64,000 nucleotides of DNA from a virus (taxonomy: Duplodnaviria > Caudoviricetes), in IMG/VR virus record IMGVR_UViG_3300021387_001758, positions 1-64,000 of that record. One strand, given 5' to 3'. The position numbers were made by a program, and so were the translations under genes. Below the pieces are notes generated by a model, which saw nothing but the letters and a program-made list of their open reading frames with translations, searched no databases and was not told where the DNA came from. This document shows positions 16,850 through 43,405 of the stretch, piece by piece. Position 1 is the stretch's first letter. Each line of letters begins with the position of its first letter.

Positions 16850-16930
16850 ATATCTAATCTATGAATACGCTCGGCTTCGATTTGGTTTGTGGAGAGGTGA
16901 AGCGAACGTTAATTTTCCTCCTATAATATA

Positions 16931-16959
16931 AGTATAGCAGATTGCGGAGGAGAAGTCAA
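16931..16959 (-). promoter_or_regulatory. sigmaA-type promoter for the structural operon
   Basis: Minus strand TTGACT-N17-TATACT. Confidence 0.7.
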
Positions 16960-17674
16960 ATTTTAGAAGGCATAGGTTGAAAAAAATATCTTGTGGGGAT
17001 AATAGGTTCAGATTTTTGTTTCGTGGAGATAATGTAGGGGCCGTTTTTCTCTAACGCTTTCCAAAACCTTCCTTTTCCTAAAATAACCCCGGCCCTTCGA
17101 GCGATTGACTTTGTTAAATTTTTAACAACCTCTTCATCAATTCTCACTCAATTTTTCCGCAAGTTACTGTCGCCCAAAAGAACATATGTTCTTTTTTCTA
17201 TTGTCAAAAAATTTTTAGAATTTCGAAAGAATTCCTAAAAGGGGCCGGTCATTTTTTATTCACCCCTCTTCAATAAAAACCACCCCTCTTTTAGTCGAAC
17301 AAAGGAGATCCTATTCTGCGGGCCAGGGTCGCGAAAAAGAACATATGTTCTTTTATTTAGTCCGGACTTTGTTAAATTTTTAACAAAGTCGTAGTCCGGA
17401 CTTTGTTAAATTTTTAACAGGTGATCGTCTTATCTTTGGGACGTTTTAGTCCGGCCTTTGTTAAAAATTTAACAAAGTCCCGCGCGAGTTGGGGGGCCAA
17501 ACACTTTAGCGCATTAAAGTAGTAAAGCGAACCTCTTCATTTTGTATTGTGTATACAGTATACAAGGACAAAAAAATAAATTAAAAAGATAATAAAAAAA
17601 TAATAAAAAGGGGTTGACAAGTTATAGTATCCATGCTATTATATATATGTAAGAAAGAGAGAGGAGAAAAGGAA

Positions 17675-18085
17675 ATGACAAAGGCTTACTACTTCGATAT
17701 GGACGGCGTGCTCGCAAACTTCCATAAGGCATATAAAGAGGATAGAATGGTTGCTCTTAAGAGAGATAAGATGGCGAACCTTGAACCGTTCGAAGCAAAC
17801 GTGAAACTCGTTCGCAACCTTATCGCACATAACGAAGTAGTATATGTACTCACTAAGGCAGCCAACGAAGAGGCGATGGAAGGCAAGATTGAATGGCTTG
17901 CAAAGTACGTTCCTGAGATGGATAAAGAACACTTCATTTGCATCGTAGGTCATGGTAAGAAAGTTGACTTCATTCGTGAAGATGGCGTACTCGTTGATGA
18001 TGATATGAAGAACCTTAAGCCGTGGGCAAAGGAAGGACACGAAGTATACTACGTAGAAGAAAAGGGAATGGAAGTAGTATTCTAA
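17675..18085 (+). CDS. HAD-superfamily 5'(3')-nucleotidase-like protein, paralog 1
   Basis: DMDGVLANF motif I, LVDDD motif IV; own promoter at 17614-17642; start at 17675 by RBS. Confidence 0.75.
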   Translation: MTKAYYFDMDGVLANFHKAYKEDRMVALKRDKMANLEPFEANVKLVRNLIAHNEVVYVLTKAANEEAMEGKIEWLAKYVPEMDKEHFICIVGHGKKVDFIREDGVLVDDDMKNLKPWAKEGHEVYYVEEKGMEVVF

Positions 18086-18260
18086 AGATAGAAAGAGGGT
18101 AGATAAAAGGTTTACCCTCTTCATTTATAGATAGAAAATAGATAGATAAATAGACAGTGAAAAAAGTTTAACTAATTTGTAAAAAGGGGTTGACAGTACC
18201 TCTTCATTGTGGTATATTATAGTTAAGGAAAGGGAAGATAATTGAAAGGAAGGTAAACAA

Positions 18261-18437
18261 ATGAGGAATATAAACACTGAAAACATTATTATAGCAATTA
18301 CAATAATTGCGGCAATTATCGGAACAATCATTGGTATTATTGCAATCGTAAACGGACAGATAGTAGACAGTGAAACAGTTAGCCCCGCCAACCCAGCAAG
18401 TCCCGTTCATCAGTTAATGAAGAGTGTAATGTATTAA
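18261..18437 (+). CDS. Small single-pass membrane protein (58 aa)
   Basis: Hand-translated MRNINTENIIIAITIIAAIIGTIIGIIAIVNG...; promoter, RBS and terminator (18437-18458). Confidence 0.6.
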   Translation: MRNINTENIIIAITIIAAIIGTIIGIIAIVNGQIVDSETVSPANPASPVHQLMKSVMY

Positions 18438-18695
18438 AGAAGTCGAAAGACTTCTTTTCATTTACCAAGGGACGAACATACGTTCGCACCAAGCGAACAT
18501 ATGTTCGTCTACTGCGGGCGGCCGCGCGCACTTTAGCACGTTAAAGCATTAAAGCATTAGTATCGAGTTTGTTTGTTAATTAACAAACGACATATTTATA
18601 CATTGAAATGAATATTTATTTTTTTAATTTGAGGGTTGACAAATATATTCAGTTGTGGTATATTATAATTGACGAAAGGAAAGGAGAAAACACAA

Positions 18696-19439
18696 ATGAC
18701 AAAACTAATATTCGATACTGAGACTACTGGACTGGATAAGCCGTTCTGTTACAATGTGGGCTATATCATTGTTAATGATGAGGGTATGGTAGAGGTAAAG
18801 AAAGAGTATGTATGCGAGCAGGTATGGCATAATCCAATGCTATTTACTACTGCATACTATGCGAACAAAAGACCAATCTATGTTAACAGAATGAGAGCAA
18901 GACAGATAACAATGAAGAAATTCGGTTATATCTGTCAAGAGATGATTAGAGATATTGAGCGCTATAATGTTACAATGGCTTTTGCTTTCAATAGCGACTT
19001 TGACGAGAAAGTGTTCGACTTCAATTGTGAATGGTTCAAATGTAATAATCCTTTTGATAATGTGGAAATTAAGGATATTAGAGGTTTCGTTCATCACTTC
19101 TTAATTGATAACGAGTTTAAAGCATTTTGCGAAGAACACGAACTGTTTACAGAATGTGGTAACTATTCCACCACAGCCGAAACAATGTATAGATATATAA
19201 CTGATGATAATACTTTTGAGGAAGAGCACACGGCGTTAAGTGATAGCATTATTGAGTGGGAAGTATTGAAGAAATGTATTGAAAGGGGCGCTGATACTAC
19301 AGAGAATTATAAAGCGTATCGCTCAATTAAAAGAGATACCGAAAAGGTATTAACAATTGATAATAAAGGCGATATATATACAATTCCTTGTAAAGAGTAT
19401 AAAGTTTATAAAAGCAAAAATAAAATTGTAATTAAATAA
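18696..19439 (+). CDS. DEDDh 3'-5' exonuclease (DnaQ-like), paralog 1
   Basis: IFDTETTG, AFNSDFD, HTALSDS motifs. Confidence 0.85.
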   Translation: MTKLIFDTETTGLDKPFCYNVGYIIVNDEGMVEVKKEYVCEQVWHNPMLFTTAYYANKRPIYVNRMRARQITMKKFGYICQEMIRDIERYNVTMAFAFNSDFDEKVFDFNCEWFKCNNPFDNVEIKDIRGFVHHFLIDNEFKAFCEEHELFTECGNYSTTAETMYRYITDDNTFEEEHTALSDSIIEWEVLKKCIERGADTTENYKAYRSIKRDTEKVLTIDNKGDIYTIPCKEYKVYKSKNKIVIK

Positions 19440-19535
19440 AAAAGTTTTGAAAAAGGGGTTGACAAACCCCTTTTTCCATGTTATTATATGTATGTAAGAA
19501 AGAGAGAGAGTTAAAAAAAGAAAGGAAGTAAAAAA

Positions 19536-19736
19536 ATGAAGTTCTTTAAGATGATGAAGGCGGCGGTAATGATTGGTAAAATGTTCAGCGATGAGGAAAA
19601 AATCAAAGAGTTAATCGACGAATACTTTGCCGAAACCGGATTAACAGTCACTGTTGAAGAGGTAAAGGCAAACGATTCAGAAAAAGTCGACTGGTTTGCG
19701 GAATGGGTTTCTGATAAGGTTATCGCACAACTTTAA
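19536..19736 (+). CDS. Hypothetical protein
   Basis: 66 aa with own promoter and RBS. Confidence 0.6.
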   Translation: MKFFKMMKAAVMIGKMFSDEEKIKELIDEYFAETGLTVTVEEVKANDSEKVDWFAEWVSDKVIAQL

Positions 19737-19839
19737 AAAATAAAATAAAAAAATAAGCGAAAGGGGTTGACAAAACCCCTTTTGTATTGTATTATAATTA
19801 TAGAAAGAGAGAGGAAGAAAAGAAAGAGAGGTAAATAAA

Positions 19840-19998
19840 ATGACAAGAAAGATGGTAGAAGAAAGAATGAAATTCGTTGAAGAAAGACTTTTCTATATCG
19901 CGATGGTAGATATGCCGACCGCAAGAGATAAAGAACTTGAAAGAGAATTTGAACACGAACTCAAAGGACTTAAAGAACAGATGAAGGCGTTCGGTTGA
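19840..19998 (+). CDS. Hypothetical protein (52 aa)
   Basis: Hand-translated MTRKMVEERMKFVEERLFY...; promoter and RBS. Confidence 0.55.
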   Translation: MTRKMVEERMKFVEERLFYIAMVDMPTARDKELEREFEHELKGLKEQMKAFG

Positions 19999-20228
19999 CG
20001 GACGCTTTTTTATGTCAACCAAAAGAACATATGTTCGTCCTGGCGCGGGCGCGTCCACTTTAGCACACTAAAGCGTTAAAGTGTAGATCTTTCGGGCGCG
20101 CTTGTTAAAAATTTAACAAAGTTCCTCTTCAAAAAATTTTAAATTTTTTAAAATAAATACTTGACAAATAAATATATTTTATATATAATATATATAGAAA
20201 GAGAAAGGTAAAAGAAAGGAAAATAAAA

Positions 20229-20672
20229 ATGACTAAAGCAATTTACTTCGATATGGATGGAACAATCGCTAACCTTTACGGAGTTGAAAATTGGTTAGAT
20301 ATGCTTATCAATGGAGACGAAACACCATACAGAGTGGCGAAACCGATGATAAAAATGAATGTACTTGCAAGGTACTTAAACAAGTTACAGAGACATGGTT
20401 ATATAATCGGAATTGTTAGTTGGTTGTCTAAAGGTGGAAACACAGAATATAATAAAAAAGTAACAGAAACAAAAATCAAATGGTTGCATACTCACTTGAA
20501 AAGTGTTGAATGGAACGAAATAAAAATCGTTGAATACGGAACACCTAAAGAAACGATTGTAAACTATCCAAAAGGTATTCTGTTCGATGATGAAAAACAG
20601 AATAGAAAAAATTGGAAAGGTAAAGCATATAAAGAAAATCAGATTATGGAAGTGTTGAAAGCGATTGCATAA
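20229..20672 (+). CDS. HAD-superfamily nucleotidase-like protein, paralog 2
   Basis: FDMDGTIANL, LFDDE motifs. Confidence 0.75.
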   Translation: MTKAIYFDMDGTIANLYGVENWLDMLINGDETPYRVAKPMIKMNVLARYLNKLQRHGYIIGIVSWLSKGGNTEYNKKVTETKIKWLHTHLKSVEWNEIKIVEYGTPKETIVNYPKGILFDDEKQNRKNWKGKAYKENQIMEVLKAIA

Positions 20673-20757
20673 AATCGCTTTCAACCTTAAAAAAGGTATT
20701 GACAAGTTAAAAATTATATGCTATAATAAAAGCAGATAAAGGAAAGGGGAAAAGAAA

Positions 20758-21051
20758 ATGACACAGAGTATTATGCAGTTGGCGGAATTATTAGACGAGT
20801 GGAATATTCCTTATGAATTAACTGACGATGTATGCGGAAACGAAAATAATCAGTTATGGTATCCTAACTATAAACATAATATTTGTGATGTAATTTGTCA
20901 CGAATACAGTTACGGCGGAAAAGATGGCTTACTTGAAATAATGGGTTTAGTCCCTGAAGAGGTCGGCGATGATGTAGAAGGGTATTTAACAGTTGCGGAA
21001 GTATTCCACAGAATTCTGCAGGACTATTGCGAAAATAAAGTAAAAAATTAA
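20758..21051 (+). CDS. Hypothetical protein
   Basis: 97 aa; promoter and RBS. Confidence 0.65.
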   Translation: MTQSIMQLAELLDEWNIPYELTDDVCGNENNQLWYPNYKHNICDVICHEYSYGGKDGLLEIMGLVPEEVGDDVEGYLTVAEVFHRILQDYCENKVKN

Positions 21052-21142
21052 AAAGTTTTTTTCTAAAAAGGGTTGACAAACCCTTTTTTTCATGTTATAT
21101 TATATATGTAAGAAAGAGAGAGATAAAAGAAAGGAAAAGAAA

Positions 21143-21316
21143 ATGGCTTACGTAGAAATGTTCGATTATGTGCTTTCTGTAGAACAGTATGAACGCGAAC
21201 GCGCGCAGTACCACGAAGAATGGTTAGCGATGGATGATTGGGACCGTTCATGGTATGATGATGAAGAGGAATTCATCGAAGACCGTTTCCATTCCGCTTG
21301 CTATCCGGATGACTAA
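21143..21316 (+). CDS. Small acidic protein (57 aa)
   Basis: Start re-placed by RBS; terminator at ~21327-21352. Confidence 0.6.
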   Translation: MAYVEMFDYVLSVEQYERERAQYHEEWLAMDDWDRSWYDDEEEFIEDRFHSACYPDD

Positions 21317-21614
21317 AGAAAAGAAAAGTAAGCCGCAAGGCTTATTTTTTTCTATCCATCAAAAGAACATATGTTCGGGCGCGGCCGGCCGCACTTTAGC
21401 GCATTAAAGTAATAAAGTGCGCGACTTTCGCCGTCGATTGTTAAATTTTTAACAATTGATCCTATATATATATTATAATTCTCTTCCCATTATATCATAC
21501 CATACAAGAGAGATAATGTCAAGGGAAAAATTAAAAAAAATTTGTTAAATTTTCCCTTGACAGATTAAAAAACTCATGCTATAATAAAGACACAAAAGGA
21601 AAGGAGAGTAAAAA

Positions 21615-21851
21615 ATGAAAGCATTTGTTACGAAAGCAAACTCGGATTATTGGTACAAAATTAAAGAATTTGACACGATGGAAGATATTGCAAAATTTAT
21701 GAAAGAGGTTGAGTGCGGATTAATTATTGAAGAAAATGATTATACTGACGATGTACTTTTTGAATTTTGGGACGGAATGAAACAGGAAGACATTCCGATT
21801 ATTAAAGAATGTGCTTTACATATCACTATTTACAATGATTATGTAGAATAA
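21615..21851 (+). CDS. Hypothetical protein
   Basis: 78 aa; promoter, RBS, terminator at ~21872-21900. Confidence 0.65.
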   Translation: MKAFVTKANSDYWYKIKEFDTMEDIAKFMKEVECGLIIEENDYTDDVLFEFWDGMKQEDIPIIKECALHITIYNDYVE

Positions 21852-22065
21852 AAATTCTGATAAAGAGAAAAGAGTTAGTCTTTACTAACTCTTTTCTTTT
21901 GCGCGTCCCTCTTCAAAAAAAAACTTGACAAAATAAAAAAAATATGATATAATATATATAGAAAATAAAAAAGAAAAGAAAATTTGAAAAAAAATTAGAA
22001 AAAGGGTTGACAAACAAAATTTGAGTGGTATAATAATAGTAGAAAAAGAGAAAGGAGAAAAGAAA

Positions 22066-22422
22066 ATGGCTGTTAGTAGAAAAGTAGAAAGAGAACTTTT
22101 GAGAGAAGAGTATTTGAACAAACTGATTGAGTACTTTAAAGCCGATGAAGATGTTTTGAGAGTGAAAAGTAACGAAATCGCATTTCCTGTAGTTGGTTGT
22201 AACGATAGTGAGGATTTTATCGTAATTACAGTAAAAGTGCCTACGGGTGCAAACAAAGGTACAGAGCCTTACGATGGTTACGAACTTGCCGAAGAATACG
22301 AAATGAAGTTGAAAGAGAAAGAACAGAAAAAGAAAGAAAAGGCAATCGCAAAAGAAAAGAAAATCAAGCGTGACGAAGAAGTCAGACGCAAGAAAAAGGA
22401 AATCGCCGAAAAAGGAAAATAA
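22066..22422 (+). CDS. Hypothetical coiled-coil protein, MAVSRKVERE family paralog 1
   Basis: Close paralog of 27748..28107. Confidence 0.75.
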   Translation: MAVSRKVERELLREEYLNKLIEYFKADEDVLRVKSNEIAFPVVGCNDSEDFIVITVKVPTGANKGTEPYDGYELAEEYEMKLKEKEQKKKEKAIAKEKKIKRDEEVRRKKKEIAEKGK

Positions 22423-22510
22423 AAAAAATAAAAAATAAAAGAGAAAAGGGGTTGACAAAATCCCTTTTTTCATATATAATATAATTGTAAAGAGAAAGGG
22501 GAAAGAAAAA

Positions 22511-22693
22511 ATGAAAAAGAAATACAGACTGAATAAAGTAAAATTTATCCGTTTTATCTGCTTTACAATTATGCTTTTAATCATCGGTTGGTTCATGGTT
22601 TCATACATTGAAATTCTTTGTAAGAATATCACAGAAAATCCGACTTACAGCGACTGGAATTTTATCTTTGTTGCACAAAAACTTTTGAAATAA
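22511..22693 (+). CDS. Small membrane protein
   Basis: 60 aa with one hydrophobic segment. Confidence 0.6.
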   Translation: MKKKYRLNKVKFIRFICFTIMLLIIGWFMVSYIEILCKNITENPTYSDWNFIFVAQKLLK

Positions 22694-22914
22694 TCACCTT
22701 TTACCTCCTTTTTTACAATATATGGAAAAGGTCACCACTGAGTGGTGACTTTTTCCGCTCTTCAAAAAGAACATATGTTCGCCTCCGGCGCCGGACCGGA
22801 GATTGTTAAAAAATTAACAATTTCGGCACCGCGCACTTTAACGCTTTAACGTGGTAAAGTGTACGCAGACGGGCGCGCCCGCTTTAGCGCGCTAAAGTGG
22901 TAAAGGATTGTACT

Positions 22915-23470
22915 AAATAAAAAACATTAAAAAAGGTATTGACATTTAGGGCGGGCGGGTGTATACTATAATTGTTCCAAGGGAGGGACAAACGAAAATA
23001 AAAAAAATAAAAAAAGTTTGAAAAATCCCTTGACAAATCAAAGCCAATGTGCTAATATATACTTGAGGGTAGGAGAGTTAAGGGTTTACCTCACTACAAA
23101 GTAGCAAGCAGTCGCAAGTACAAGCACTACCGAAAAAACCCGAAAAAAGTTTAAAAAAAGTGTTGACAAACTAAAGCAAATGTGCTAATATATAATCAAG
23201 GAAAGGGAGATACTTCTGAGACTGTTCCCCAATACCGAAAGGCAAGAGAACTGTGAGCCAAATAAAATTTGTAGCCGCATAGGAAGTATCACCCGAAATC
23301 CTAAAAAAATCTAAAAAAGGTATTGACAAACTTGAAAAAGTATGTTAATATATAAATGTCAAGAGGGTCGTGGAGAGGTCGCCCCACGAAGTAGCGTAAG
23401 AGGATAACACACAGACCTAAATCGATAAGTGAAAACCTCTTGACAATATTACAAAAGTGTGATAATATAT
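22915..23470 (+). promoter_or_regulatory. Stack of five tandem sigmaA promoters with ORF-less intervals
   Basis: TTGACA near 22940, 23031, 23164, 23323, 23440, each with a -10-like hexamer. Confidence 0.75.
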
Positions 23471-23546
23471 AATCACAGAGAGGGAGACAGGAACTCCCAA
23501 AGGTAACTAAAAAGGGTCACGACCAACGTGAGAAAGTAGGTACACT

Positions 23547-23888
23547 ATGACTAACAGAGAATTCTTCGAAATGGTAATGAATGGTAACGTAACTGACGAG
23601 GTTAAGGCTCACGCTGAAATGTCGATTGAGAAACTCGATGCGCGCAACGCAAAGAGAGCATCTCAGCCGTCAAAGAGAGCGATTGAGAACGAACCTATCA
23701 AGGCTAACATCAGAGAGTATCTCGCTGATAAAGAGCCGACTACGGCAAGCGAAATTGCCAAGGGACTTGAACTGACTGTTCAGAAAGTTTCCGCACTGTG
23801 TAGACAGATGGTAAATGATGGTATTCTCACCGTTACCGAGGTTAAGGTAAAGGGAAAGGGCAATCAGAAAGCGTATGCTATCGGTTGA
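23547..23888 (+). CDS. Winged-HTH (MarR/ArsR-like) protein, paralog 1
   Basis: TTASEIAKGLELTVQKVSALCRQMVNDGIL. Confidence 0.75.
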   Translation: MTNREFFEMVMNGNVTDEVKAHAEMSIEKLDARNAKRASQPSKRAIENEPIKANIREYLADKEPTTASEIAKGLELTVQKVSALCRQMVNDGILTVTEVKVKGKGNQKAYAIG

Positions 23889-24181
23889 CAATAATTCCCA
23901 GCCGGGAAGAGAGAGAAAATCTCTCTCTTCCTTTTTTTACCATTCCGCGGTTAACAATAACAGGTATTATGTCAACCGCGACAATAATAATATTATTGTC
24001 AACCGGCCAAAAATCTTTATCCACAGATTGTTAAATTTTTAACAGGGCGGCCGGCCGCGCGCACTTTAGCGAGTTAAAGCGTTAAAGGATCGAGCCAAAA
24101 AAATAATTGGAAAAAAGTACTTGACAAGTCCTCTTCATTATGGTAATATATACTTGTAAGAAGGAGAAAGGAGAAATAAAA

Positions 24182-24373
24182 ATGACTTGTACTGAATGGA
24201 ATAAAGGGATTAAGTTCCTCACTACTGCAGAGGTAGGCGCGTGGGTTGACCACGAAGACCGCACAGTTATTATCGAGGAGATGTGCGGAGGCAGATATTT
24301 ACTCCTCGACCGCAAAGAAGTTTGCGGGGTGACCGATTCGGTCATCGAGGCGATGTCATTCCTTAGGGGATAG
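24182..24373 (+). CDS. Hypothetical protein
   Basis: 63 aa; start by RBS. Confidence 0.6.
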   Translation: MTCTEWNKGIKFLTTAEVGAWVDHEDRTVIIEEMCGGRYLLLDRKEVCGVTDSVIEAMSFLRG

Positions 24374-24527
24374 GCAACCGCCTTTTTTATTAACCAATGA
24401 ACGAACGTTCGCGCGGCCGGCCGCGCGCACTTTAGTCTGCTAAAGCATTAAAGGATCGAAAAAAAGTACTTGACAAATCCTCTTCATTATGGTAATATAT
24501 GGGTAGAAAGAGAAAAGGAGATAAAAA

Positions 24528-24701
24528 ATGAAAGTGATTTTTGCAGGGTATCTTATTGTAGTCTTTTCCCTTGGCGTTCATGGGATTTTTTATGATAAAA
24601 CCGATAAAAACGGAAATTTTAAAGTAAATTGGCCTTTTGGTTTATTTCTTTTCTTGTTTGGACTTACTCCCATAATTGCGAAAATATGTAATTTAATTTG
24701 A
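24528..24701 (+). CDS. Small two-TM membrane protein (57 aa)
   Basis: Hand-translated MKVIFAGYLIVVFSLGVHGIF...WPFGLFLFLFGLTPII. Confidence 0.55.
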   Translation: MKVIFAGYLIVVFSLGVHGIFYDKTDKNGNFKVNWPFGLFLFLFGLTPIIAKICNLI

Positions 24702-24770
24702 AATTGCACTTGACAAGTCCTCTTCATTGTGATATACTTATTATAGAAAGAAAGGAAAGGAGAAAGGAAA

Positions 24771-24938
24771 ATGAAAACGTACTTATTTGAAGATTTTGAA
24801 ACGGGTGAGAGATTCTTTGTTGAAGAGGAAACACCGGAAAAGGCAATTGCAGTTGCCGATGAATATTTTGACCACGCTATTTTCATGTGGGAAGTATCCG
24901 AAGAATGGGCGGACTTGGCAGGATTTGACACTTACTAA
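24771..24938 (+). CDS. Small acidic protein (55 aa)
   Basis: Hand-translated MKTYLFEDFETGERFFVEEE...; promoter and RBS. Confidence 0.6.
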   Translation: MKTYLFEDFETGERFFVEEETPEKAIAVADEYFDHAIFMWEVSEEWADLAGFDTY

Positions 24939-25042
24939 AAAAAATTAAAAAAGTTTTGAAAAAGGGTTGACAAGTTCAACCCTTTATGGTAATATATAAT
25001 CGTAAGGAAGAGAGAGTTAAAAAAAAGAGAAAGGAAAAAGAA

Positions 25043-25234
25043 ATGATGTACTTAGTAATTTTTATCGAAGAATACGTTGGCTACCACTTTGACGAACACA
25101 CCAAGTTTTTCAAGGATGAACAGTCGGCAAAGGAATATTGCCAGAAATTAAACGCCGAATTTGCCGAAGAAAATCATTGTTCGGTTGAAGATTTAGGTGA
25201 CTACTACACGGTTGAGTGGGTTAAGGAAGGTTAG
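25043..25234 (+). CDS. Small acidic protein
   Basis: Start by RBS; terminator at ~25250-25276. Confidence 0.6.
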   Translation: MMYLVIFIEEYVGYHFDEHTKFFKDEQSAKEYCQKLNAEFAEENHCSVEDLGDYYTVEWVKEG

Positions 25235-25586
25235 AAAGGACTAACCCACCAAAAAGAGGGCAACCTCTTTTTTTTTGTTCTGCCGGCGAACATACGTTCT
25301 CGGCGGCCGCCCTCGCGCACTTTAGCGTAGTAAAGTGGTAAAGTGGACGGATCCGGCGCCCGCGCATAAACATACATGAAAATGTATAAATATTTTTTTC
25401 AAAAAAGTATTGACAAAATTGATTATATATATTATACTATAATGGGGAAGTATGCCCAGGCGTAAAAGTGCGAATTTTCTGAATTGTCAGAAAATTAAAA
25501 CTTTTTATTTTGGGGTTGACAAATTCCGTTCTATCCCTTATAATAGTAACTGTAAGGTAAAGAGAAAAGGAAAGGAACGAAACAAC

Positions 25587-26252
25587 ATGAAAATCGACAA
25601 AAGAAAAAACTATTATCTGACAATCGACACGGAAACGGCAAACGGATTTGATGACCCGATTGTATACGATTTAGGCGGATGTATACATGACAAGAAAGGC
25701 AACGTAATGGAAACATTTTCCTTTATCATTTACGAAACCTTTTGCGGAATGAAAGATTTAATGCAGAGTGCCTACTACTCCGAAAAAATTCCGATGTATC
25801 AGAAAGAAATTGACGAGGGAAAAAGAAAAATCGTAACCTATACCACCGCCAAAAGATATATCAATGCACTTTGTAAAAAGTACAATGTCAAGGCAATAAT
25901 CGCCCACAATATGAGATTTGATTATAGGGCAACGACACGGACGCAAAGATATATCACGAAATCAAAAGTCAGATTTTTTCTTCCGTATGGCGTTGAATTG
26001 TGGGATACAATGAAAATGGCAAATGATACAATTTGCAAACAGAAAACATATATCAAGTGGTGTAAAGAAAACGGATATATGACAAAGAACGGACAAGTCA
26101 GAAAAACGGCGGAAATCCTTTACAAGTACATTTCAGGCAACTGGGATTTTGTGGAAAATCATACAGGACTTGAAGATGTGCTAATCGAAAAGGAAATCTT
26201 TTCCAAGTGTATGGCACAACATAAGCCGATGAGAAAATTATGTTTTGACTAA
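25587..26252 (+). CDS. DEDDh 3'-5' exonuclease, paralog 2
   Basis: IDTETANG, AHNMRFD, HTGLEDV. Confidence 0.85.
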   Translation: MKIDKRKNYYLTIDTETANGFDDPIVYDLGGCIHDKKGNVMETFSFIIYETFCGMKDLMQSAYYSEKIPMYQKEIDEGKRKIVTYTTAKRYINALCKKYNVKAIIAHNMRFDYRATTRTQRYITKSKVRFFLPYGVELWDTMKMANDTICKQKTYIKWCKENGYMTKNGQVRKTAEILYKYISGNWDFVENHTGLEDVLIEKEIFSKCMAQHKPMRKLCFD

Positions 26253-26335
26253 AAAAATTCTAAAAAAGGGGTTGACAAAGTCAGCCCCTTTTGGTATTAT
26301 AATTATAGAAAGAGAGAGAAAGAAAGGTAAGAAAA

Positions 26336-26488
26336 ATGTATATGGTATGGGTATTTGATGAAGATTTATATGATGATGTGTTGATTTTTGAAGGGTCATA
26401 TGAACAGTGCCAAGAGGTAGTAGCCGAAGGGCGCGCAATCGGTGAGGACCCGTATATCGTAGCCAGCGAGGACTACTACGAGGACTAA
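26336..26488 (+). CDS. Small acidic protein (50 aa)
   Basis: Hand-translated MYMVWVFDEDLYDD...; terminator at ~26499-26527. Confidence 0.55.
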   Translation: MYMVWVFDEDLYDDVLIFEGSYEQCQEVVAEGRAIGEDPYIVASEDYYED

Positions 26489-27029
26489 GCCGAAAAGGAT
26501 AAGCCGAAAGGCTTATCTTTTTTTTTGTTCTTAAAAAGAACATATGTTCGCGGCGGGCCGGTGGCGCGCACTTTAGTCTGCTAAAGCGTTAAAGCGATCC
26601 GCGCCGCTTGTTAAAAATTTAACAATCGATCCGGTCCGCCGATTGTTAAAAAATTAACAAAGATTTTTTTCAAAAAGGGGTTGACTTTTTCCCTATGTGG
26701 GTATATACTATAATTGTCAAGGGGAGAGGAAGCCGAGGGACTCACGAGGGCGCGCACTCCACGAGAGAAGGAAAAAAATTCTCGAAAAAAAATAAAAAAA
26801 CCCCTTGACACTATCACAAAAATGTGATAATATATAATTGACCCAAGGGGAGAGGTTAAAAACGAAAGTAGTAAAATATTACAACCCCGCGGGTGAAAAA
26901 AAGTTTTAAAAAGTACTTGACAAGATAGACAAAAGGTGCTATACTTAAGTCAAGGAAAGGGGAAAGACAGGAACTTTCCCAAAGGTAAATCTAAAAAGGG
27001 TTGTGACCAACACAAGAAAGAGGTGTCTT

Positions 27030-27374
27030 ATGACAAAGAGAGAATTCATGGAAATGGTTATCGCTGAGGTTACTAACGCAGAACTCAAGGCTTTTGCCCA
27101 GTCTGAAATCGAAAAGATGGACGCGCGCAACGCTAAGAGAGCCGAAACGCCTTCCAAGACGGCAATCGCTAACGAGCCTATCAAGGCACAGATTGTCGAA
27201 TTCCTGAAGGGTTGCGAGGAAAAGGTTACCGCTTCCGCTATCGCTTCCGAGGTTGAAATCTCAACGCAGAAGGCTTCCGCCCTTTGCAGACAGTTGGTAG
27301 CAGATGGTGTTCTGACCGTCGCAGATGTGAAGGTTAAGGGCAAGGGTACACAGAAGGGTTACGAAATCGCGTAG
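27030..27374 (+). CDS. Winged-HTH protein, paralog 2
   Basis: VTASAIASEVEISTQKASALCRQLVADGVL. Confidence 0.75.
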   Translation: MTKREFMEMVIAEVTNAELKAFAQSEIEKMDARNAKRAETPSKTAIANEPIKAQIVEFLKGCEEKVTASAIASEVEISTQKASALCRQLVADGVLTVADVKVKGKGTQKGYEIA

Positions 27375-27747
27375 CCTAACCCAAGCCGAGGAAGGGAAAA
27401 ATTTTCCCTTCCTTTTTTTACCATTCAGACGAACATATGTTCGTGGCAGAAATTGGAAGAACATATGTTCGCGAACATACGTTCGCGGTCGATCTGGTCC
27501 GGACTTTGTTAAAAATTTAACAATCGGGGCCGGCGCCGCGCACTTTAACACACTAAAGTGCTAAAGTCTTTCGATCCGGCGCGCGGTTTACATAATATTA
27601 TTATCGTTATGCGGTGCGGTTTACATAATATTATTATCGTTACGAAAAAATCCGAAAAAAATTTTTGAAAAAGGGTTGACAAATTGTGTTCTATCCCTTA
27701 TACTATATATAGAAAGTAAGAGTTGAGGTTAAGGAAAGGAGTTAACT

Positions 27748-28107
27748 ATGGCAGTATCGCGCAAGGTAGAAAGAGAAATCATCCGCAAACAGTATCTCGA
27801 AATGGTAGCCGAATTCCTCAAGGAAAAGGGTGAAGATGTTCTCCGTGTTAAGTCCAACGAAATCGCTTTTCCAGTCGTTGGATGTGAAGATAGCGAAGAT
27901 TTTCTCGTTATCACTTTCAAGGTGCCGACTGGCGCCAATAAGGGAATGGAACCGTATGACGGTTACGAAATGGCGGAAGAGTACGAAATGAAACTCAAAG
28001 CCAAAGAGGAAAAGGCGAAAGCCAACGCCGAAAAAAAGGCGAAGAAAATCGCTCGCGACAAAGAAATCAGAGCGAAAAAGGCAGAAATTGCCAACAAGGG
28101 AAAATAG
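27748..28107 (+). CDS. MAVSRKVERE family paralog 2
   Basis: Shares LRVKSNEIAFPVVGCxDSEDF and KVPTGANKG with 22066..22422. Confidence 0.75.
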   Translation: MAVSRKVEREIIRKQYLEMVAEFLKEKGEDVLRVKSNEIAFPVVGCEDSEDFLVITFKVPTGANKGMEPYDGYEMAEEYEMKLKAKEEKAKANAEKKAKKIARDKEIRAKKAEIANKGK

Positions 28108-28619
28108 CCATTTTCTTCCAGAGGGAAGAGGGTCGGTTGACCCTCTTCTTTTATTGTAAACCGCGCAACAATAATAATATTATGTCAACCACGAACATAT
28201 GTTCGCGGCAGCCGAATTTCAAAGGCGAACATATGTTCGCGGCCGGCCGTAGTTGTCCACTTTAACACACTAAAGCGATAAAGTGCGCGCCGGCGGGCGT
28301 CCACTTTAACACGTTAAAGTAGTGAAGTGCAGAAATCCGGGCCGCTCGTTAAATTTTTAACAAAGTCAAGTTTTCTGGCAACTATTCCGAAAATTAGTTT
28401 TTTAGGAATAGTTACAACCTCTTCACTATATATAGTATATTTCCCTCTTCAATACCACTATATATAGTATGTTTTGGTCGTGCCAACTATTCCGAAAAAA
28501 TGCTTTATCGGCATAGTTATACCGCCGAATTGTCAGAATATTCCAACTATTCAGAATTGTCAGAATATTCCAGCTTTTCGCTTTAGCGTACTAAAGCGTT
28601 AAAGCGTTGTCAAATTTTA

Positions 28620-28860
28620 AAATTTTTCCAGGAGCTGCGAAAGAGCTGCGATCGAAAATTTTTTTCACGGCCGTGGGGAGCTGCGATTTGACTTTTTTAT
28701 TTCGCATCCAGGAGCTGCAAAAAATTTGACTTTAAAAGTCAAATTTCTTTTATAAAATTCAAGGAGCTGCGCTTTGGAAATTTGACAAAAAAAGTCAAAT
28801 TTTTAAGGAGCTGCAACTTAGAGCTTTTGGGAATTTGACTTTAAAAGTCAAATTTTCAGC
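28620..28860. repeat. Cluster of GGAGCTGC direct repeats and TTTGAC-N7-GTCAAA palindromes
   Basis: GGAGCTGC at 28631, 28677, 28711, 28763, 28807; palindromes at 28722, 28778, 28832 (and ~29580). Confidence 0.8.
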
Positions 28861-29115
28861 GCGCACCCGCACGAACCTCTTCAAATTAAAATTTGAAAAA
28901 GCTCTAAAAATCTTTTATAATATATATAGAAAGTGAGGGAAGAAAAAAATAAAAAGCTCCTCCGCTGAAGAGGAAAGGGCAAAAGAAATTTTGACAAATC
29001 CTCAAAAATCTTATATAATATATATGTAAGATGAAGAGAGGGAAAAGTAACTTCCTTCTAAAGTAAAAACCATAACGTAACTGGGTGGTGACCTACACCA
29101 GAAAGAGAGTACAAA

Positions 29116-29457
29116 ATGACTAAGAGAGAAATGATGAACCTGATCGCTAACGGAACTATCAATGAAGAGGTTATGGCTTGGGCTGTCGGCCAGATCGAGA
29201 AGATGGATGCGGCTAACGAGAAGCGCAGAAACTCCGTTTCTAAGAAAGCGCTTGAGAACGCTCCGATCATCGACAGAATCGTGAACGAGATCCTCGGTGA
29301 GGAACCGATGACTGCTACTGATGTAGCTGGAGTTCTCGGAGTTTCTGTCCAGAAAGCATCTGCACTCCTGCGCACTGCCGTGAAGGAAGGTAGAGCTGCT
29401 GCCGAGGACGTGAAAGTTAAGGGCAAAGGCACTCAGAAGGGGTACACTCTCGCGTAG
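29116..29457 (+). CDS. Winged-HTH protein, paralog 3
   Basis: MTATDVAGVLGVSVQKASALLRTAVKEGRA. Confidence 0.75.
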   Translation: MTKREMMNLIANGTINEEVMAWAVGQIEKMDAANEKRRNSVSKKALENAPIIDRIVNEILGEEPMTATDVAGVLGVSVQKASALLRTAVKEGRAAAEDVKVKGKGTQKGYTLA

Positions 29458-38727: not shown

Positions 38728-38802
38728 TGGCGGGAAGGATAGGACTCGAACCTACAACCTCGTGCTTAACAGGCACTTGCTCCACCATTGAGCTACCAAC
38801 CC
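38728..38802 (-). tRNA. trnN: tRNA-Asn(GUU)
   Basis: Cloverleaf, CCA; two U-U mismatches in acceptor stem. Confidence 0.85.
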
Positions 38803-38812
38803 ACGCTCAAGT

Positions 38813-38953
38813 CTATTCAGACTGCGCGCCTTCAAGATTTCTAATCTGTCTCTTCAGTTTCCTCACTACACCAGAACTCTCACCGTTCTTTCCGTTCGAC
38901 TGAAGAAGATGCAGCCTATGTTTAAGACCTTCAATAGATTTTCCCTTTGCCAT
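38813..38953 (-). CDS. Small basic protein (46 aa)
   Basis: Hand-translated MAKGKSIEGLKHRLHLLQSNGKNGESSGVVRKLKRQIRNLEGAQSE; AAGGAG RBS. Confidence 0.55.
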   Translation of the reverse strand: MAKGKSIEGLKHRLHLLQSNGKNGESSGVVRKLKRQIRNLEGAQSE

Positions 38954-38978
38954 AAAATAAACTCCTTTCTTAAAGAGC

Positions 38979-39615
38979 AAACACCCTTTAATAAATATAT
39001 AATTAAGAGTCTTTCAACTTACTAACTACTAACGCCACTATATTTGACTAATGGGGAGACATACCCAAGCAATAAGGAGCGACCCTATTACTATATGCCC
39101 CGCTTGCGCCAAGCCCATAGAGGACTGATTACCTCTACCTTTCAGGTGATATTCGGCAATTTTTTAGAAAAGCAATCTCTCTATCTTCCTTGCTTCATAC
39201 CAAATAAATTAATATGCTTGAGTCTTCGCAGATTTACCCTACTCGGAGTTGACATACAAACGGTTATACACAGATTTCTCTGCTTCAACTGCAAAACGAA
39301 TTATTGGCATTTCTTAGGTTTGCCCCTGGGCAGCCAACCCAAAACCTAACTAAGATTCGGCGTTTGCTATTAACAAGCGCTTCTATTATTTCGCCCGTTC
39401 GTATTCTGTCTTTAGCTCACGTTAGCAGTAGCGCTACACCTTTGGTTTCGGCTTCCAACCTACACGATAGTCGTCACCGCCTATCGCACAGCCCCTTAAC
39501 GAGTATCCCCGTTTCTATGGACTGACCGCCCTTTCGGGTTGTTTCGGTGTACCTCAGCACTGCAATCAGCAACTCTTCACTGAGTTCTTATTTATATATT
39601 TATTAAAGAGTGTTT
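38979..39615 (-). ncRNA. Large (~630 nt) structured ncRNA candidate, possibly GOLLD-like
   Basis: No credible ORF; elevated GC; ~30-bp terminal inverted repeat; own promoter TTGACG(39668-63)-N17-TATAAT(39645-40). Confidence 0.6.
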
Positions 39616-39810
39616 CTCCTTTCTTTACCTTATATAAATATTATACCGAAAATTTGGATTTTCGTCAAATTTTCAGAAATATTTTTCTCTAAAAATTTTA
39701 TCTTGTTTAAAGGCTTTTGTTTATCGGTACGCCACAAGAGCCTTAACTCCCGCCACTACCCTACGTTTACCGTACAGACCCTCTCAAGCGAGCGCCAGTT
39801 AGTGGATTGA

Positions 39811-39885
39811 TGGCTACGGCGGCTGGGTTCGAACCAGCGAATGACGGAGTCAAAGTCCGTTGTGTTACCACTTCACCACGCCGCA
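39811..39885 (-). tRNA. trnQ: tRNA-Gln(UUG)
   Basis: ACGGA-CUUUGAC-UCCGU; CCA. Confidence 0.95.
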
Positions 39886-40030
39886 ATATAAGTGGCATAT
39901 TTTCCCCATATGCCGGAAGGGCGAGTTTAACGGCCCTCGCGCCGCCTATTGATTATGCCCTCAACAGGATAAGAGCTGTGGTGCGCCTGACTGGAGTCGA
40001 ACCAGCACGATCTCACAATCGAGGGATTTT

Positions 40031-40768
40031 CCTGCTACTCCATGTTGCCATGGCCGCGTCACCGCGTTGTAGTCTGGACTTTCTCTTCACCATGCGTTAA
40101 TACGTTTAGGTGCGCGCCGTCAAGTCTCTACACGTTCCTCATTTGAGGCTTCGCTCGGGATTGTCCACGTGGGAGTTTCCCCGAATTTGACGCGATTCAC
40201 ATGGGAGTTTCCAACCCAAGTGCTCTATTTTATATTTTTGGTTTTATATGTATCAGTAAAATAATGACAATTAGGACAAAGTATTTCGAGATTATCTAAA
40301 TGATTATTATTTTTATTGCCATCTTTATGATGTAACTCTAATGGAATAGGATTACCCAACCACTCAGTCAAGCCACAACGGCAACATTTTTTCTCGAAAA
40401 ATCCTTCGGCAAATAATCTATTTCTTAGTTTAAAAGAAGTAATTGCTTGTTCATTATTCAAATATTTTTCTATTGGAGTTCGATATTTTCCAATATTTTT
40501 TGTGTGTGCTTGACCAGTAAAATGAGAAGTATCAAAATTATATTTCTCACACATCTCTTTTATAGTCTTAATAGCAGAACCACCATCTGGATTATATCCT
40601 ACTTTATTAGCTAACTCTCTAAAAGATTCACTCTCAGCACACATTACTGATAACTGTTCAACAGTAAATTTTTCATACTTTTTCATACCTTTTCTCCTCT
40701 TATCTCTCTACTTATAAGTAGAAAAAAGGCAGACTAAATATAAAAAATTAAACCAAACCTATATCGAA
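40031..40768 (-). mobile_element. Group I intron with HNH ORF 5' of the core
   Basis: Ends in G; AAATTCGGGGAA, AATCCCGAGC, GTGTAGAGACT, AAGAGAAAGTCC all lie after the ORF. Confidence 0.85.
40225..40686 (-). CDS. Intron-encoded HNH endonuclease
   Basis: CCRC...LELHHKDGNKNNNHLDNLEILCPNCH. Confidence 0.9.
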   Translation of the reverse strand: MKKYEKFTVEQLSVMCAESESFRELANKVGYNPDGGSAIKTIKEMCEKYNFDTSHFTGQAHTKNIGKYRTPIEKYLNNEQAITSFKLRNRLFAEGFFEKKCCRCGLTEWLGNPIPLELHHKDGNKNNNHLDNLEILCPNCHYFTDTYKTKNIK

Positions 40769-40809
40769 AAGTCCCTTGCGTCTGCCTATTCCGCCACAAG
40801 CGCGCAGTT

Positions 40810-41058
40810 CTATTCATCAAAGAACTTCCAAATCGGATTCACAAAATCATAATCCCGATTAGAAACTCTATAATTGCCAAACAACTTTACCAACTCGTCA
40901 AGCGTTCCACCGATTTTCAAATAATCTTTCATGGCTTCAAAAGCCTTACTCTGCGCGGCGATCTTATTCTTTTCCTTGTCTTTGAACTGCTTTTCTGCAG
41001 CAAGGCAATCCTCAACTGTATCGTACTTCTTTCCGGTAATTTCACTTACAACATACAT
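40810..41058 (-). CDS. Hypothetical protein (start MYVVSEITGKKY)
   Basis: GAGGAG RBS; the longer ORF-track start overlaps an RNA gene. Confidence 0.6.
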   Translation of the reverse strand: MYVVSEITGKKYDTVEDCLAAEKQFKDKEKNKIAAQSKAFEAMKDYLKIGGTLDELVKLFGNYRVSNRDYDFVNPIWKFFDE

Positions 41059-41092
41059 ATTGGTTTTCTCCTCACTAACAAGACAATAATAC

Positions 41093-41173
41093 TGGTGGAG
41101 TCGATGGGAATCGAACCCATGTCCGAAACACTGCACTTTGGCCTTGATGCCCCGTCGAAACCATTCCGACCCC
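41093..41173 (-). ncRNA. ssrA: Minimal tmRNA: tRNA-like domain only (81 nt)
   Basis: GGGGUCG-GAAUGGUUUCGAC 5' end; GAC-AUGGG-UUCGAUU-CCCAU-CGACUCC-ACCA 3' end; G3-U70 pair; no mRNA-like domain. Confidence 0.8.
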
Positions 41174-41254
41174 ATAGAAGAAGGAGCTGAACGCTCCTTT
41201 CTTATATACCATATAGACAATGGTACGTAGGTGGTGAAACCTAAGAAATAAAAA

Positions 41255-41655
41255 ATGGTTTAATTCTGATTCCGTAAGGTGGGTCGCAGTATCCTTCTGC
41301 GACTAAACCAATAGGTTACTTTGCCTTCTTATTTGGTCAAGGTGCGTTTGCCACAAGGCCACATATCAATCAATGAAAGCATAGTCGAACTAACTAAATC
41401 TTATGAGACAATTGCCGGTGGTAGTTTACCTATTAAAATCCATGTTAACGCATCTGCTACTGACCATCTGAGTAGCGCAGGGCTTGACTTACATCGGCTC
41501 AAGCATACCTTGGAGAATTTAAGAACTAATCCTCAACCGCAATTCTCCTTACGATTACGTTCCGTCCGTAGACAACGCTTAGCCAGATTAGTAATTTGCT
41601 GAATTTATATCGTTAGTCAGCGACTCCGTACACGTTTAGGGTCGAGTAAAGACCA
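41255..41655 (-). ncRNA. Large (~400 nt) structured ncRNA candidate, ROOL-like
   Basis: No credible ORF; starts right after tRNA-Met CCA; GUCGCAG/CUGCGAC hairpin; CCAAGGUAUGCU and GUUAACAUGGA resemble ROOL as I recall it (unverified). Confidence 0.5.
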
Positions 41656-41656
41656 A

Positions 41657-41731
41657 TGGTTGCGGAAGTAGGATTCGAACCTACGACTTTTAGGTTATGA
41701 GCCTAAATTGCTACCGCTGCATCATTCCGCC
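41657..41731 (-). tRNA. trnM: tRNA-Met(CAU), initiator-like
   Basis: CAU anticodon; unpaired 1-72 (G-A); only two G-C pairs at the anticodon stem base. Confidence 0.8.
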
Positions 41732-41734
41732 ATA

Positions 41735-42128
41735 AAGGAACTTTGGACGCATCCTTAGTTCCTAGGCTTACTCCGAAGAGATAGGCCTCTATTCTTCATT
41801 TGCTACAACTTCGAGTTCGTTCCACGGATCCTTTCTCTATATTTCCGAAATTCTTGTGGTGATCAAATCCACGGTGAGTATTGTTGTATCGCATCCGTCC
41901 CTTTCGGAGACGCGACCTGTTGCTTCAGGCGACTCTCTCATAGACATTGTTCCGGAACTGCCTATGTTGGATTGTTGTATTTTATTGCAAACGCACTCCC
42001 ACTTTACTCAAGGCTTGTGACTTGCACGGCCTAAACCTCTGTTTAAGCTTGATGGCGTGGTTACGTTTAGCATCGAGAGGGGAGAAAAGGAAAGGAAGTA
42101 AGATTTATCTCCCCTCTCTTAACTTTCT
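41735..42128 (-). ncRNA. Candidate ~390-nt leader or ncRNA
   Basis: Promoter TTGACA(42163-58)-N17-TATAAT(42140-35); no credible ORF; several hairpins. Confidence 0.4.
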
Positions 42129-42173
42129 ATATATATTATAGCAAAGTTTTATAATTTTGTCAAAATTTCTTTC

Positions 42174-42404
42174 TTAGAGTGCGGCCCACTCATTACAAGC
42201 ATCATATCTATCGTCAGCTTGATCTTCCCAAGCGAACCGAATTCTCGCGCGAAGGTCTTCAATGTCCTGTGCGAGTTCACCGATGATCCATTCATCATCT
42301 TCATCTCCACGACCCCTTGCATCCTCAAGTGCAAACTCGAACTCTTCTTCCTTCATTTCAAGTTCCTTCTGGAGCATTATCGGATCTTCATAGTCTCTAT
42401 ACAT
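42174..42404 (-). CDS. Small acidic coiled-coil protein
   Basis: 76 aa with AGAAAGAAGG RBS. Confidence 0.6.
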   Translation of the reverse strand: MYRDYEDPIMLQKELEMKEEEFEFALEDARGRGDEDDEWIIGELAQDIEDLRARIRFAWEDQADDRYDACNEWAAL

Positions 42405-42597
42405 TTATAACCTTCTTTCTTAGTTTAATTTTGAGAGTTGAACGCGGCGTCTCGTTCGGATTAGTGGGAATTGAACCCTTGGCTCTTACCTACCATAAGT
42501 TTTTAACTTCGAGCCTTCTCTTACTTTTTCCTCTCTCTTAACTTTCTATATATATTATATAAGAAAATTATAAATATTTCAAATTATTTTTTATAAA

Positions 42598-42674
42598 TGG
42601 CGACGCTGACGGGACTCGAACCCGTGACCTTCAGCGTGACAGGCTGACATTCTAACCAACTGAACTACAGCGCC
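42598..42674 (-). tRNA. trnD: tRNA-Asp(GUC)
   Basis: Cloverleaf, CCA. Confidence 0.95.
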
Positions 42675-42734
42675 AAATAATGGGAGGGGTCCTACATCTC
42701 CCGCTTTTCCACAGAACAATTCTCTGGCAGGACC

Positions 42735-42808
42735 TGGAGCGGATAACGAGAATCGAACTCGTATTCTCAGCTTGGAAGGCTGACGCTCTACCATTAAACT
42801 ACATCCGC
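42735..42808 (-). tRNA. trnG: tRNA-Gly(UCC)
   Basis: Cloverleaf, CCA. Confidence 0.95.
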
Positions 42809-42817
42809 ATATAAGTT

Positions 42818-42894
42818 TGGTACTGCGACTGAGACTCGAACTCAGAACCTACGGATTAGAAGTCCGTTGCGCTCTCCAATTACGCTACCGCAGC
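42818..42894 (-). tRNA. trnR: tRNA-Arg(UCU)
   Basis: Cloverleaf, CCA. Confidence 0.95.
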
Positions 42895-42897
42895 ATA

Positions 42898-42972
42898 TGG
42901 CATAGGCTCAAGGACTTGAACCTCAATTAGTAGTTTTGGAGACTACCGTGCTACCAATTACACTAAGCCTAC
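42898..42972 (-). tRNA. trnW: tRNA-Trp(CCA)
   Basis: GUAGU-CUCCAAA-ACUAC. Confidence 0.9.
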
Positions 42973-42976
42973 ACAA

Positions 42977-43052
42977 TGGTGGAGAATAGGAGACTCGAAC
43001 TCCTGACCCCCTGCGTGCAAAGCAGGTGCTCTCCCATCTGAGCTAATTCCCC
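42977..43052 (-). tRNA. trnA: tRNA-Ala(UGC)
   Basis: Cloverleaf, G3-U70, CCA. Confidence 0.95.
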
Positions 43053-43058
43053 AAAAAA

Positions 43059-43134
43059 TGGTGCGGGTGACACGACTTGAACGTGCGGCCCCTTAGTCCC
43101 AAACCAAGCGCTCTACCAACTGAGCTACACCCAC
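43059..43134 (-). tRNA. trnP: tRNA-Pro(UGG)
   Basis: Cloverleaf, CCA. Confidence 0.9.
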
Positions 43135-43138
43135 AAAA

Positions 43139-43227
43139 TGGCGGAGGATGTAGGATTCGAACCCACGGGGCTTTCGCCACAACAGATTTCAAGTCTGCGC
43201 CGTTATGACCAACTTCGGTAATCCTCC
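43139..43227 (-). tRNA. trnS: tRNA-Ser(UGA)
   Basis: Long variable arm, CCA. Confidence 0.95.
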
Positions 43228-43230
43228 AAA

Positions 43231-43311: not shown

Positions 43312-43325
43312 AAATTAATTTTTAA

Positions 43326-43402: not shown

Positions 43403-43405
43403 ACA

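Follow-up and report, generated by a model that had tools for sequence, protein, structure and literature searches.

Arrays of consensus Rex-type operators in the early region of a gut or rumen phage as possible decoys for host repressors

The closest known system to the one considered here is found in the virulent Bacillus phages phi29 and Nf, whose DNA carries boxes for the host regulator Spo0A (PMC2731898). Those boxes overlap or abut early promoters and origins and repress directly, coupling infection to host physiology. In this work, we describe an array of operators of the type bound by the redox-sensing bacterial repressor Rex in the first 64 kb (64,000 nucleotides, hereafter the window) of the 78,387-bp IMG/VR virus record IMGVR_UViG_3300021387_001758 (CheckV completeness 66%). 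Just as in phi29 and Nf, sites, here predicted ones, for a host global regulator lie in the early region of a lytic phage. Unlike them, the Rex-type boxes avoid promoters, are far more numerous, form tandem arrays and are multiplexed with candidate sites for other host repressors.

GIL01 (with gp7) and CTXphi use the host LexA through phage operators. The likeness is that a host repressor is exploited via operators on phage DNA, and the phage described here bears about 15 LexA-type boxes of the Cheo kind. However, GIL01 and CTXphi are temperate elements with one or a few operators at the promoter of the lysogeny switch, whereas here we see arrays in the spacers of a large phage. In E. coli, datA titrates DnaA. 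More generally, transcription-factor decoy arrays and natural titration loci consist of repeated sites that titrate a factor and shift its regulon (PMC7826281, PMC3322331, PMC8599769). The phage array shares with them the repeated consensus sites without a regulated gene, and titration is what we infer for it.

Phages are known to reprogram the host by means of proteins, and a small number of them to read one host regulator via a few operators. Our full-text searches of the literature found no Rex boxes on phage genomes and no natural phage-borne decoy for host repressors. The initial annotation of the window, which knew of no phage with a Rex-box array, agrees with these searches of the literature but is wrong as regards sequences, since more than 60 IMG/VR contigs of uncultured phages and two cultured Enterococcus phages bear arrays of the Rex consensus outside promoters, mixed with operators of other repressors. 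To judge from the sequences, host Rex quite probably binds these boxes, and we propose tentatively, as a possible reading, that they are docks for host Rex acting mainly as a decoy. If Rex does bind, the arrays would represent either a new way of sensing the host metabolic state or a DNA-only takeover of the host by titration, which bears on how gut and rumen phages alter host fermentation. The two Enterococcus phages grow in culture on hosts whose Rex and CcpA biology is known, so the question is directly testable.

Rex-type boxes of the window and of related phages

An exact search revealed nine perfect TTGTTAA-N4-TTAACAA palindromes in the window, all between 17111 and 27523, and no perfect box in 100 dinucleotide-preserving shuffles of the window. 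Allowing one mismatch added the boxes at 17403, 24028 and 28346, giving the twelve operators within 17111-28363 that the initial annotation had reported. The remainder of the record contained no additional perfect site, and the reversed-pattern control gave zero. A site with two mismatches at 18569 lies inside the same early block, and another one at 229 is probably due to chance. The boxes are listed below; the head and tail operator islands are described with the cassettes.

17111-17128: Rex-type box 1, perfect (TTGTTAA-ATTT-TTAACAA), head operator island
17369-17386: Rex-type box 2, perfect, head operator island
17403-17420: Rex-type box 3, one mismatch (final base G), 16 bp past box 2
17458-17475: Rex-type box 4, perfect, head operator island
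18569-18586: degenerate 13th site, two mismatches, placed as in a cassette, behind two Cheo boxes and one TAAAG motif
20102-20119: Rex-type box 5, perfect, in the order terminator, Cheo box, TAAAG motif, Rex box; next -35 at 41 bp
21438-21455: Rex-type box 6, perfect, cassette order as for box 5; next -35 at 101 bp
22803-22820: Rex-type box 7, perfect, preceded by a terminator and a Cheo box
24028-24045: Rex-type box 8, one mismatch, after the terminator at 23904-23932, with a DnaA-box-like TTATCCACA 2 bp upstream
26608-26625: Rex-type box 9, perfect, first member of a tandem pair
26643-26660: Rex-type box 10, perfect; exactly 20 bp separate its end from the downstream -35 at 26681
27506-27523: Rex-type box 11, perfect, preceded by three Cheo boxes
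28346-28363: Rex-type box 12, one mismatch (TCG...), in the promoter-poor tail operator island

In all twelve boxes the 4-nt spacer consists of A and T only, in line with the Rex operator (ROP) pattern TTGTKAA-W4-TTMACAA. Ravcheev et al. 2012 gave TTGTTAANNNNTTAACAA as the Rex consensus specific to Clostridiaceae, as quoted in two papers (PMC9600882, PMC8457756) on whose evidence the Rex motif of C. thermocellum, obtained by DNA affinity purification sequencing (DAP-seq) and confirmed by electrophoretic mobility shift assay (EMSA), agrees with that consensus. The S. aureus Rex box is TTGTGAAW4TTCACAA (PMC2883068), and Streptomyces has this variant too. The published Clostridiaceae consensus is identical to the phage motif, the W4 spacer included, exactly as the motif had been recognised at the outset. 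Across the boxes, it is the 18-bp core that carries the information content, together with a loose left flank rich in CCGG. Farther out, the flanks vary from copy to copy, thus indicating that the boxes are not simple copies of one long repeat. The palindrome was also considered as an RNA hairpin or terminator; this was ruled out by the A/T-rich stems with weak folding energies, mostly of -2 to -9 kcal/mol, and by the position of the boxes downstream of real terminators in DNA that is probably untranscribed.

For comparison with bacterial Rex operators, a scan of 185,579 species genomes gave 20 stretches with tandem pairs of the T type (TTGTTAA), which on clearly bacterial contigs precede genes for NuoE/NuoF-like hydrogenase subunits, acyl-CoA dehydrogenase or a class-V aminotransferase. 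Five Bacillota genomes with such tandem sites each have one Rex gene, and in two of them a Rex-type site lies immediately before rex. Both T and G are found at position 5 in the five genomes, which contain 2-3 perfect sites, and 4-7 sites with at most one mismatch, per 1.3-2.0 Mb, as against nine perfect and twelve near-perfect boxes in 11 kb of the phage. The bacterial operators are like the phage boxes in the 18-bp inverted repeat, the A/T spacer, the choice of T or G at position 5 and the tandem pairs. They differ in that each genome has only a few of them, mostly imperfect and situated at the promoters of genes for redox metabolism or fermentation, whereas the phage boxes are crowded in spacers that are probably not transcribed, off promoter cores and without a metabolic gene nearby. 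No phage box was found to overlap or abut the promoter of a redox or fermentation gene; the neighbours are small early phage genes.

Relatives were found via composite-motif scans of IMG/VR, and below G000 denotes the record under study, while G001-G005 and L-numbers denote related loci and contigs. The scans revealed a phage family of about 125-135 kb with the same cassettes. The complete genome G001 (135 kb) bears 13 boxes within 11 kb, with identical half-sites and different spacers (TTTA), and G002 to G005 have 3-4 boxes each in the family comparison (the promoter-distance analysis of G002 counts five). Tandem pairs were found in 44 IMG/VR contigs for the T type and in 19 for the G type (TTGTGAA), and in none for the control variant TTGTAAA; some G-type contigs (L068, L069, L073, L084) belong to the same phage family. 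Among 337 in-frame sites of related contigs, positions 5/14 were T/A in 237, G/C in 60, hybrid in 33 and other in 7. The ascertainment favours the two symmetric classes in this tally, but the further sites of each locus were under no such constraint, and they did not vary either. The alternatives at these positions are the two known Rex variants.

The copy number of the boxes is highly unstable, ranging from 3 to more than 24 among relatives, with 24 boxes counted in L033, 17 within 5.6 kb of L091 and 10 within 630 bp of L028. In L030, which is among the nearest relatives (terminase 80% identical), ten boxes recur every 24 bp exactly, which leaves no space for promoters, and this 240-bp array lies in an island homologous to 16850-17613 of the window.

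Judged by the portal, two cultured Enterococcus phages are distantly related: EF1, which infects E. faecalis, and VRE9_4, which infects E. faecium. EF1 carries five and VRE9_4 six G-type boxes TTGTGAA-W4-TTCACAA, three of them perfect in each phage, confined to two short regions (control zero). The box variant tracks the host class, because these Enterococcus phages bear the Rex type of Bacilli. In VRE9_4, these regions are two non-coding islands of about 1 kb, one on either side of a 9-kb stretch of small genes. This stretch has about 25 strong promoters and encodes a homolog of phrog_20187, a family also present in the early block of the window; these features identify it as the homologous early block. 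The box regions of EF1 and VRE9_4, in both phages part of the homologous early block, also bear perfect palindromes TGTAAGCGCTTACA, in VRE9_4 together with a CodY-like box. TGTAAGCGCTTACA is the CcpA site (cre). The multi-operator design recurs in Enterococcus phages with a different set of host regulators. The VRE9_4 (L121) islands, at 118.5-119.2 kb and 127.0-128.2 kb, further contain many TGTTATTTTA / AAAATAACA and TGAATGAACAGATGTACATATATTCATATG-like repeats. Four cultured distant relatives, Brevibacillus Sundance, Alicyclobacillus KKP_3916, B. subtilis FADO and Lactococcus phiL47, have no array, so the array is not universal in the broad group. As for the phage itself, the host probably belongs to the Clostridia within the Bacillota, and the nearest Atlas clusters of the endolysin are viral or Bacillota.

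Position relative to promoters and composite cassettes

All twelve boxes of the window are intergenic: the previous open reading frame (ORF) ends 104-391 bp before the box, and the next -35 follows 20-627 bp after it. We analysed the placement of 430 boxes over all loci against a null in which each site was shifted locally by up to 150 bp. The results showed that boxes avoid promoter cores, as only 2 of the 430 overlap the stretch from -35 to -10, compared with 7% under the null (binomial P ~1e-11, indicative only, as the sites are not independent), and upstream positions are enriched. Sites blocking early promoters, as in phi29, are therefore not what we see. There is a small peak of boxes ending 19-21 bp before the -35, about 17 of the 430 sites: the box at 26643 in the window, those at 7979 and 11798 in L023, and three of the five G002 boxes, one of them between divergent promoters.

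The peak brings in the possibility of a gate in cis, in which host Rex, LexA and other repressors, occupying the spacers, would weaken the early promoters or set their timing according to the redox and nutritional state of the host. In starved cells with little NADH, the phage would then restrain itself, much as phi29 does via host Spo0A, so a lytic phage reading a host regulator has a precedent (PMC2731898). Consistent with this, the boxes occur only in the promoter-dense early region, and a box at the recurrent distance of 19-21 bp would cover the distal UP-element zone. Nevertheless, we consider such a gate rather unlikely. The recurrent distance concerns a small fraction of the sites, the core where Rex repression usually takes place is almost never covered, and most G000 boxes are 41-627 bp from the next -35. 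Moreover, there are 12 boxes for about 35 promoters, and pure tandem arrays and promoter-poor islands leave nothing to regulate.

The boxes are not isolated. About 11 GC-rich spacers are common to them and to three other over-represented motifs confined to the early block. The cassettes are composite and combine Rex-type boxes with LexA-type, TrpR-like-type and NrdR-type boxes, which the first reading of the sequence had not remarked. As a rule, an intrinsic terminator is followed by a Cheo box, a TAAAG motif, the Rex box and then the promoter, and a terminator made of a hairpin and a T-run stands ahead of at least eight cassettes. Since intrinsic terminators precede the cassettes, the Rex-type boxes probably sit in non-transcribed DNA. 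The block and the two islands that bound it are as follows:

16850-17613: head operator island, a non-coding stretch where the late genes (- strand) meet the early ones (+ strand), with four Rex boxes, two Cheo boxes and one TAAAG motif
17614-29457, + strand: early block, made up of small genes; its sigma-70 promoters, about 35 in number, are close to consensus, and several of them have an extended -10
28108-28990: tail operator island, combining Rex box 12 with two Cheo boxes, two or three TAAAG motifs, a pair each of NrdR-like and CodY-like boxes and four iteron-like palindromes

The first companion is the Cheo-type box, GAACATATGTTC or GAACATACGTTC, with about 15 copies between 17180 and 28238, in the same spacers only, sometimes tandem or triple (27431, 27459, 27473). 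It occurs in G001 and in none of G002-G005. GAACATATGTTC is the Firmicute LexA consensus. The second one, the TAAAG motif (ACTTTAGC..TAAAG..TAAAG), is found in about 14 copies between 17503 and 28327. Its architecture, CTTTA-N3-CTTTA-N6-TAAAG-N3-TAAAG, was found once each in three of the five bacterial genomes (L111 3173-3204, L112 2423-2446, L113 2709-2732), in each case on the promoter of an amino-acid ATP-binding cassette (ABC) transporter operon adjoining a gene of the Trp_repressor family (YerC/YecD-like). The motif may be the operator of that regulator; the E. coli TrpR operator has the same 8-bp repeat period.

The third over-represented motif of the early-block spacers is CCTCTTCA. It was also seen within the -35/-10 spacer of several early promoters (18190, 24121, 24470, 24710), and, as the one promoter-overlapping motif, it is a candidate site for a phage shut-off factor such as the winged helix-turn-helix (wHTH) paralogs encoded in the block. 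Two NrdR-like boxes CACTATATATAGTAT at 28423 and 28455 (28423-28470), 32 bp apart and each preceded by CCTCTTCA, fit the pattern of tandem NrdR boxes and form the sole such pair in the record. A motif search found neither CIRCE nor cre sites in the phage.

Further elements were observed in the tail island and beside the boxes. Two CodY-like boxes AATTGTCAGAATATT lie at 28528-28570. Four iteron-like units at 28600-28860 (also 29580), each with the word GGAGCTGCR and the palindrome AATTTGAC-N7-GTCAAATT, could be a replication origin or another operator family. Lineage-specific GC-rich mini-palindromes accompany the operator boxes, TCCGGA in G000, GCCCGGGC in G001 (L021) and TGCCGGCA in G002/G003 (L022, L023).

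The order of terminator, cassette and promoter at eight or more spacers would also suit a passive use of host repressors as building blocks, whatever signals they respond to. As a roadblock or insulator, tightly bound repressor dimers behind the terminators would stop read-through that occludes the next strong promoter; or else a nucleoprotein structure would halt or tether the DNA that enters first. Such a role has been proposed for the injection-stop region of T5, which is rich in repeats. Combining several unrelated repressor sites would keep at least one of them occupied in any physiological state, and operator islands stand at both ends of the early block, here and in VRE9_4. On the other hand, the intrinsic terminators are already there, ten back-to-back boxes are more than a roadblock needs, and no ParB-type partner was found in the searches described below. 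Hence the probability of this explanation is low.

Candidate binders and possible titration of host repressors

Repeated operators for their own regulators are common in phages, so the boxes might serve a phage-encoded protein sharing or copying the Rex specificity, for example an early-to-middle shut-off factor or an architectural protein. Three or four MarR-like wHTH paralogs are encoded inside the array in G000 and G001, many early ORFs match no recognisable family, and the record lacks about a third of the genome, where a binder could lie. However, six-frame searches of G000 and four complete relatives revealed no Rex N-domain, LexA DNA-binding domain, Trp_repressor or ParB_N. Since ParB_N is absent there, the boxes do not look like a partition centromere of the parS/sopC type either (ParA was not searched). 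The wHTH paralogs are ruled out as binders of the Rex box, being absent from G002, G003 and G005, which retain the boxes; a cognate phage DNA-binding protein co-occurring with the boxes was thus found neither among the Rex, LexA, TrpR and ParB domains nor among these paralogs. The only early family shared out to the Enterococcus phages is the DnaQ-like exonuclease phrog_20187, itself rejected as a binder on account of its DnaQ-type ExoI motif. No significant hit came from PDB sequence searches with phrog_20187, with the sigma-like protein or with a wHTH paralog.

Two further points speak against a phage binder. The boxes alternate between exactly two host Rex variants, matching the host class in the cultured phages, and their neighbours match LexA, NrdR, cre and the host TrpR-linked operator, so that several mimics would be needed. 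Such a set is unlikely because the companion motifs match several host regulators independently, and we give little credence to a phage-encoded binder as a whole.

Probably, then, the boxes would be bound by the Rex dimer of the host cell itself rather than by a phage protein, Rex binding at a low NADH/NAD+ ratio and leaving as NADH rises. Since the boxes are almost never placed over a promoter core, they would not switch phage promoters off in the classical manner. Instead, together with their LexA-type, NrdR-type and TrpR-like-type neighbours, they might form a high-affinity sink. One phage genome carries two to three times the Rex sites of a whole host-like chromosome, and replication would multiply these sites, so that Rex could be drawn off its chromosomal targets and the fermentation and redox genes derepressed during phage replication. 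The minority of boxes lying exactly 20 bp upstream of a -35 would probably also tune that promoter.

A sink fits the data better than a classical operator does, given the perfect consensus, the avoidance of promoters and transcripts, the unstable copy number, the tandem arrays and the promoter-poor islands. As expected for decoy DNA, many promoter-free high-affinity sites outnumber the genomic targets, the comparison being that of 12 boxes in 11 kb with 4-7 sites per bacterial genome. Taken one step further, the composite cassettes could represent a multiplexed DNA sponge, i.e., a protein-free takeover in which operator arrays strip several host global repressors from the chromosome: Rex, LexA, NrdR and a TrpR-like factor here, and Rex, CcpA and CodY in the Enterococcus phages. 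Genes for fermentation, the SOS response, ribonucleotide reductase and uptake would then be turned on for the benefit of the phage. We regard this extended version as conceivable but doubtful.

Several observations weigh against the decoy reading. The placement at 19-21 bp argues for a role in cis, at least in G002, and the restriction of the boxes to the early region hints at a link to early transcription rather than at a sink that could lie anywhere. Relatives with only 3-5 boxes would make weak sponges. The host is known to the level of Bacillota only: the metagenome-assembled genome (MAG) bins with related contigs (Christensenellales, Acutalibacteraceae, Lachnospiraceae) point to Clostridia, but binning is weak evidence. 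G000 is 66% complete, so that a binder in the missing part would be overlooked, although the four complete relatives are without the tested domains. Finally, host-DNA degradation belongs to the pre-early functions of T5, and by analogy the early set of nucleotidases and exonucleases in the window recalls it; if the host DNA is indeed destroyed early, derepressing host genes would be pointless.

Early genes and the rest of the record

The phage is one of gut or rumen Firmicutes, with a genome of roughly 120-130 kb. Genes up to 16849 are on the - strand, with those for the portal, large terminase and a sigma-like protein among them. The early block on the opposite strand includes genes for two NT5C/HAD-type nucleotidases, two phrog_20187 paralogs and three MarR-like wHTH paralogs. 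The NT5C-like deoxyribonucleotidases and the DnaQ-like (DTETT) exonuclease paralogs, two each, are found at 17675-18085, 20229-20672, 18696-19439 and 25587-26252. As the N-terminus of phrog_20187 bears the DnaQ-type DTETT (ExoI) motif, this protein is predicted to be an exonuclease-like enzyme.

No lysogeny module is visible in the 78 kb of the record. The portal has only distant relatives (23-31% identity), among large Firmicute siphophages. Nearest-neighbour DNA searches of INPHARED gave nothing useful, and searches for relatives by portal among viral contigs and by endolysin among genome contigs yielded no confirmed relative. The rest of the record contains 21 tRNA genes, siphovirus-type tail genes and a C39_2+SH3 endolysin; the tRNA genes form a cluster at 38728-44376 on the - strand. 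Within the early block, runs of strong promoters without an ORF between them were observed, five at 22939-23468 and three at 26681-26945 (TTGACA-17-TAATAT, about 100-130 bp apart). They lie upstream of wHTH paralog genes and could drive small RNAs or leaders.

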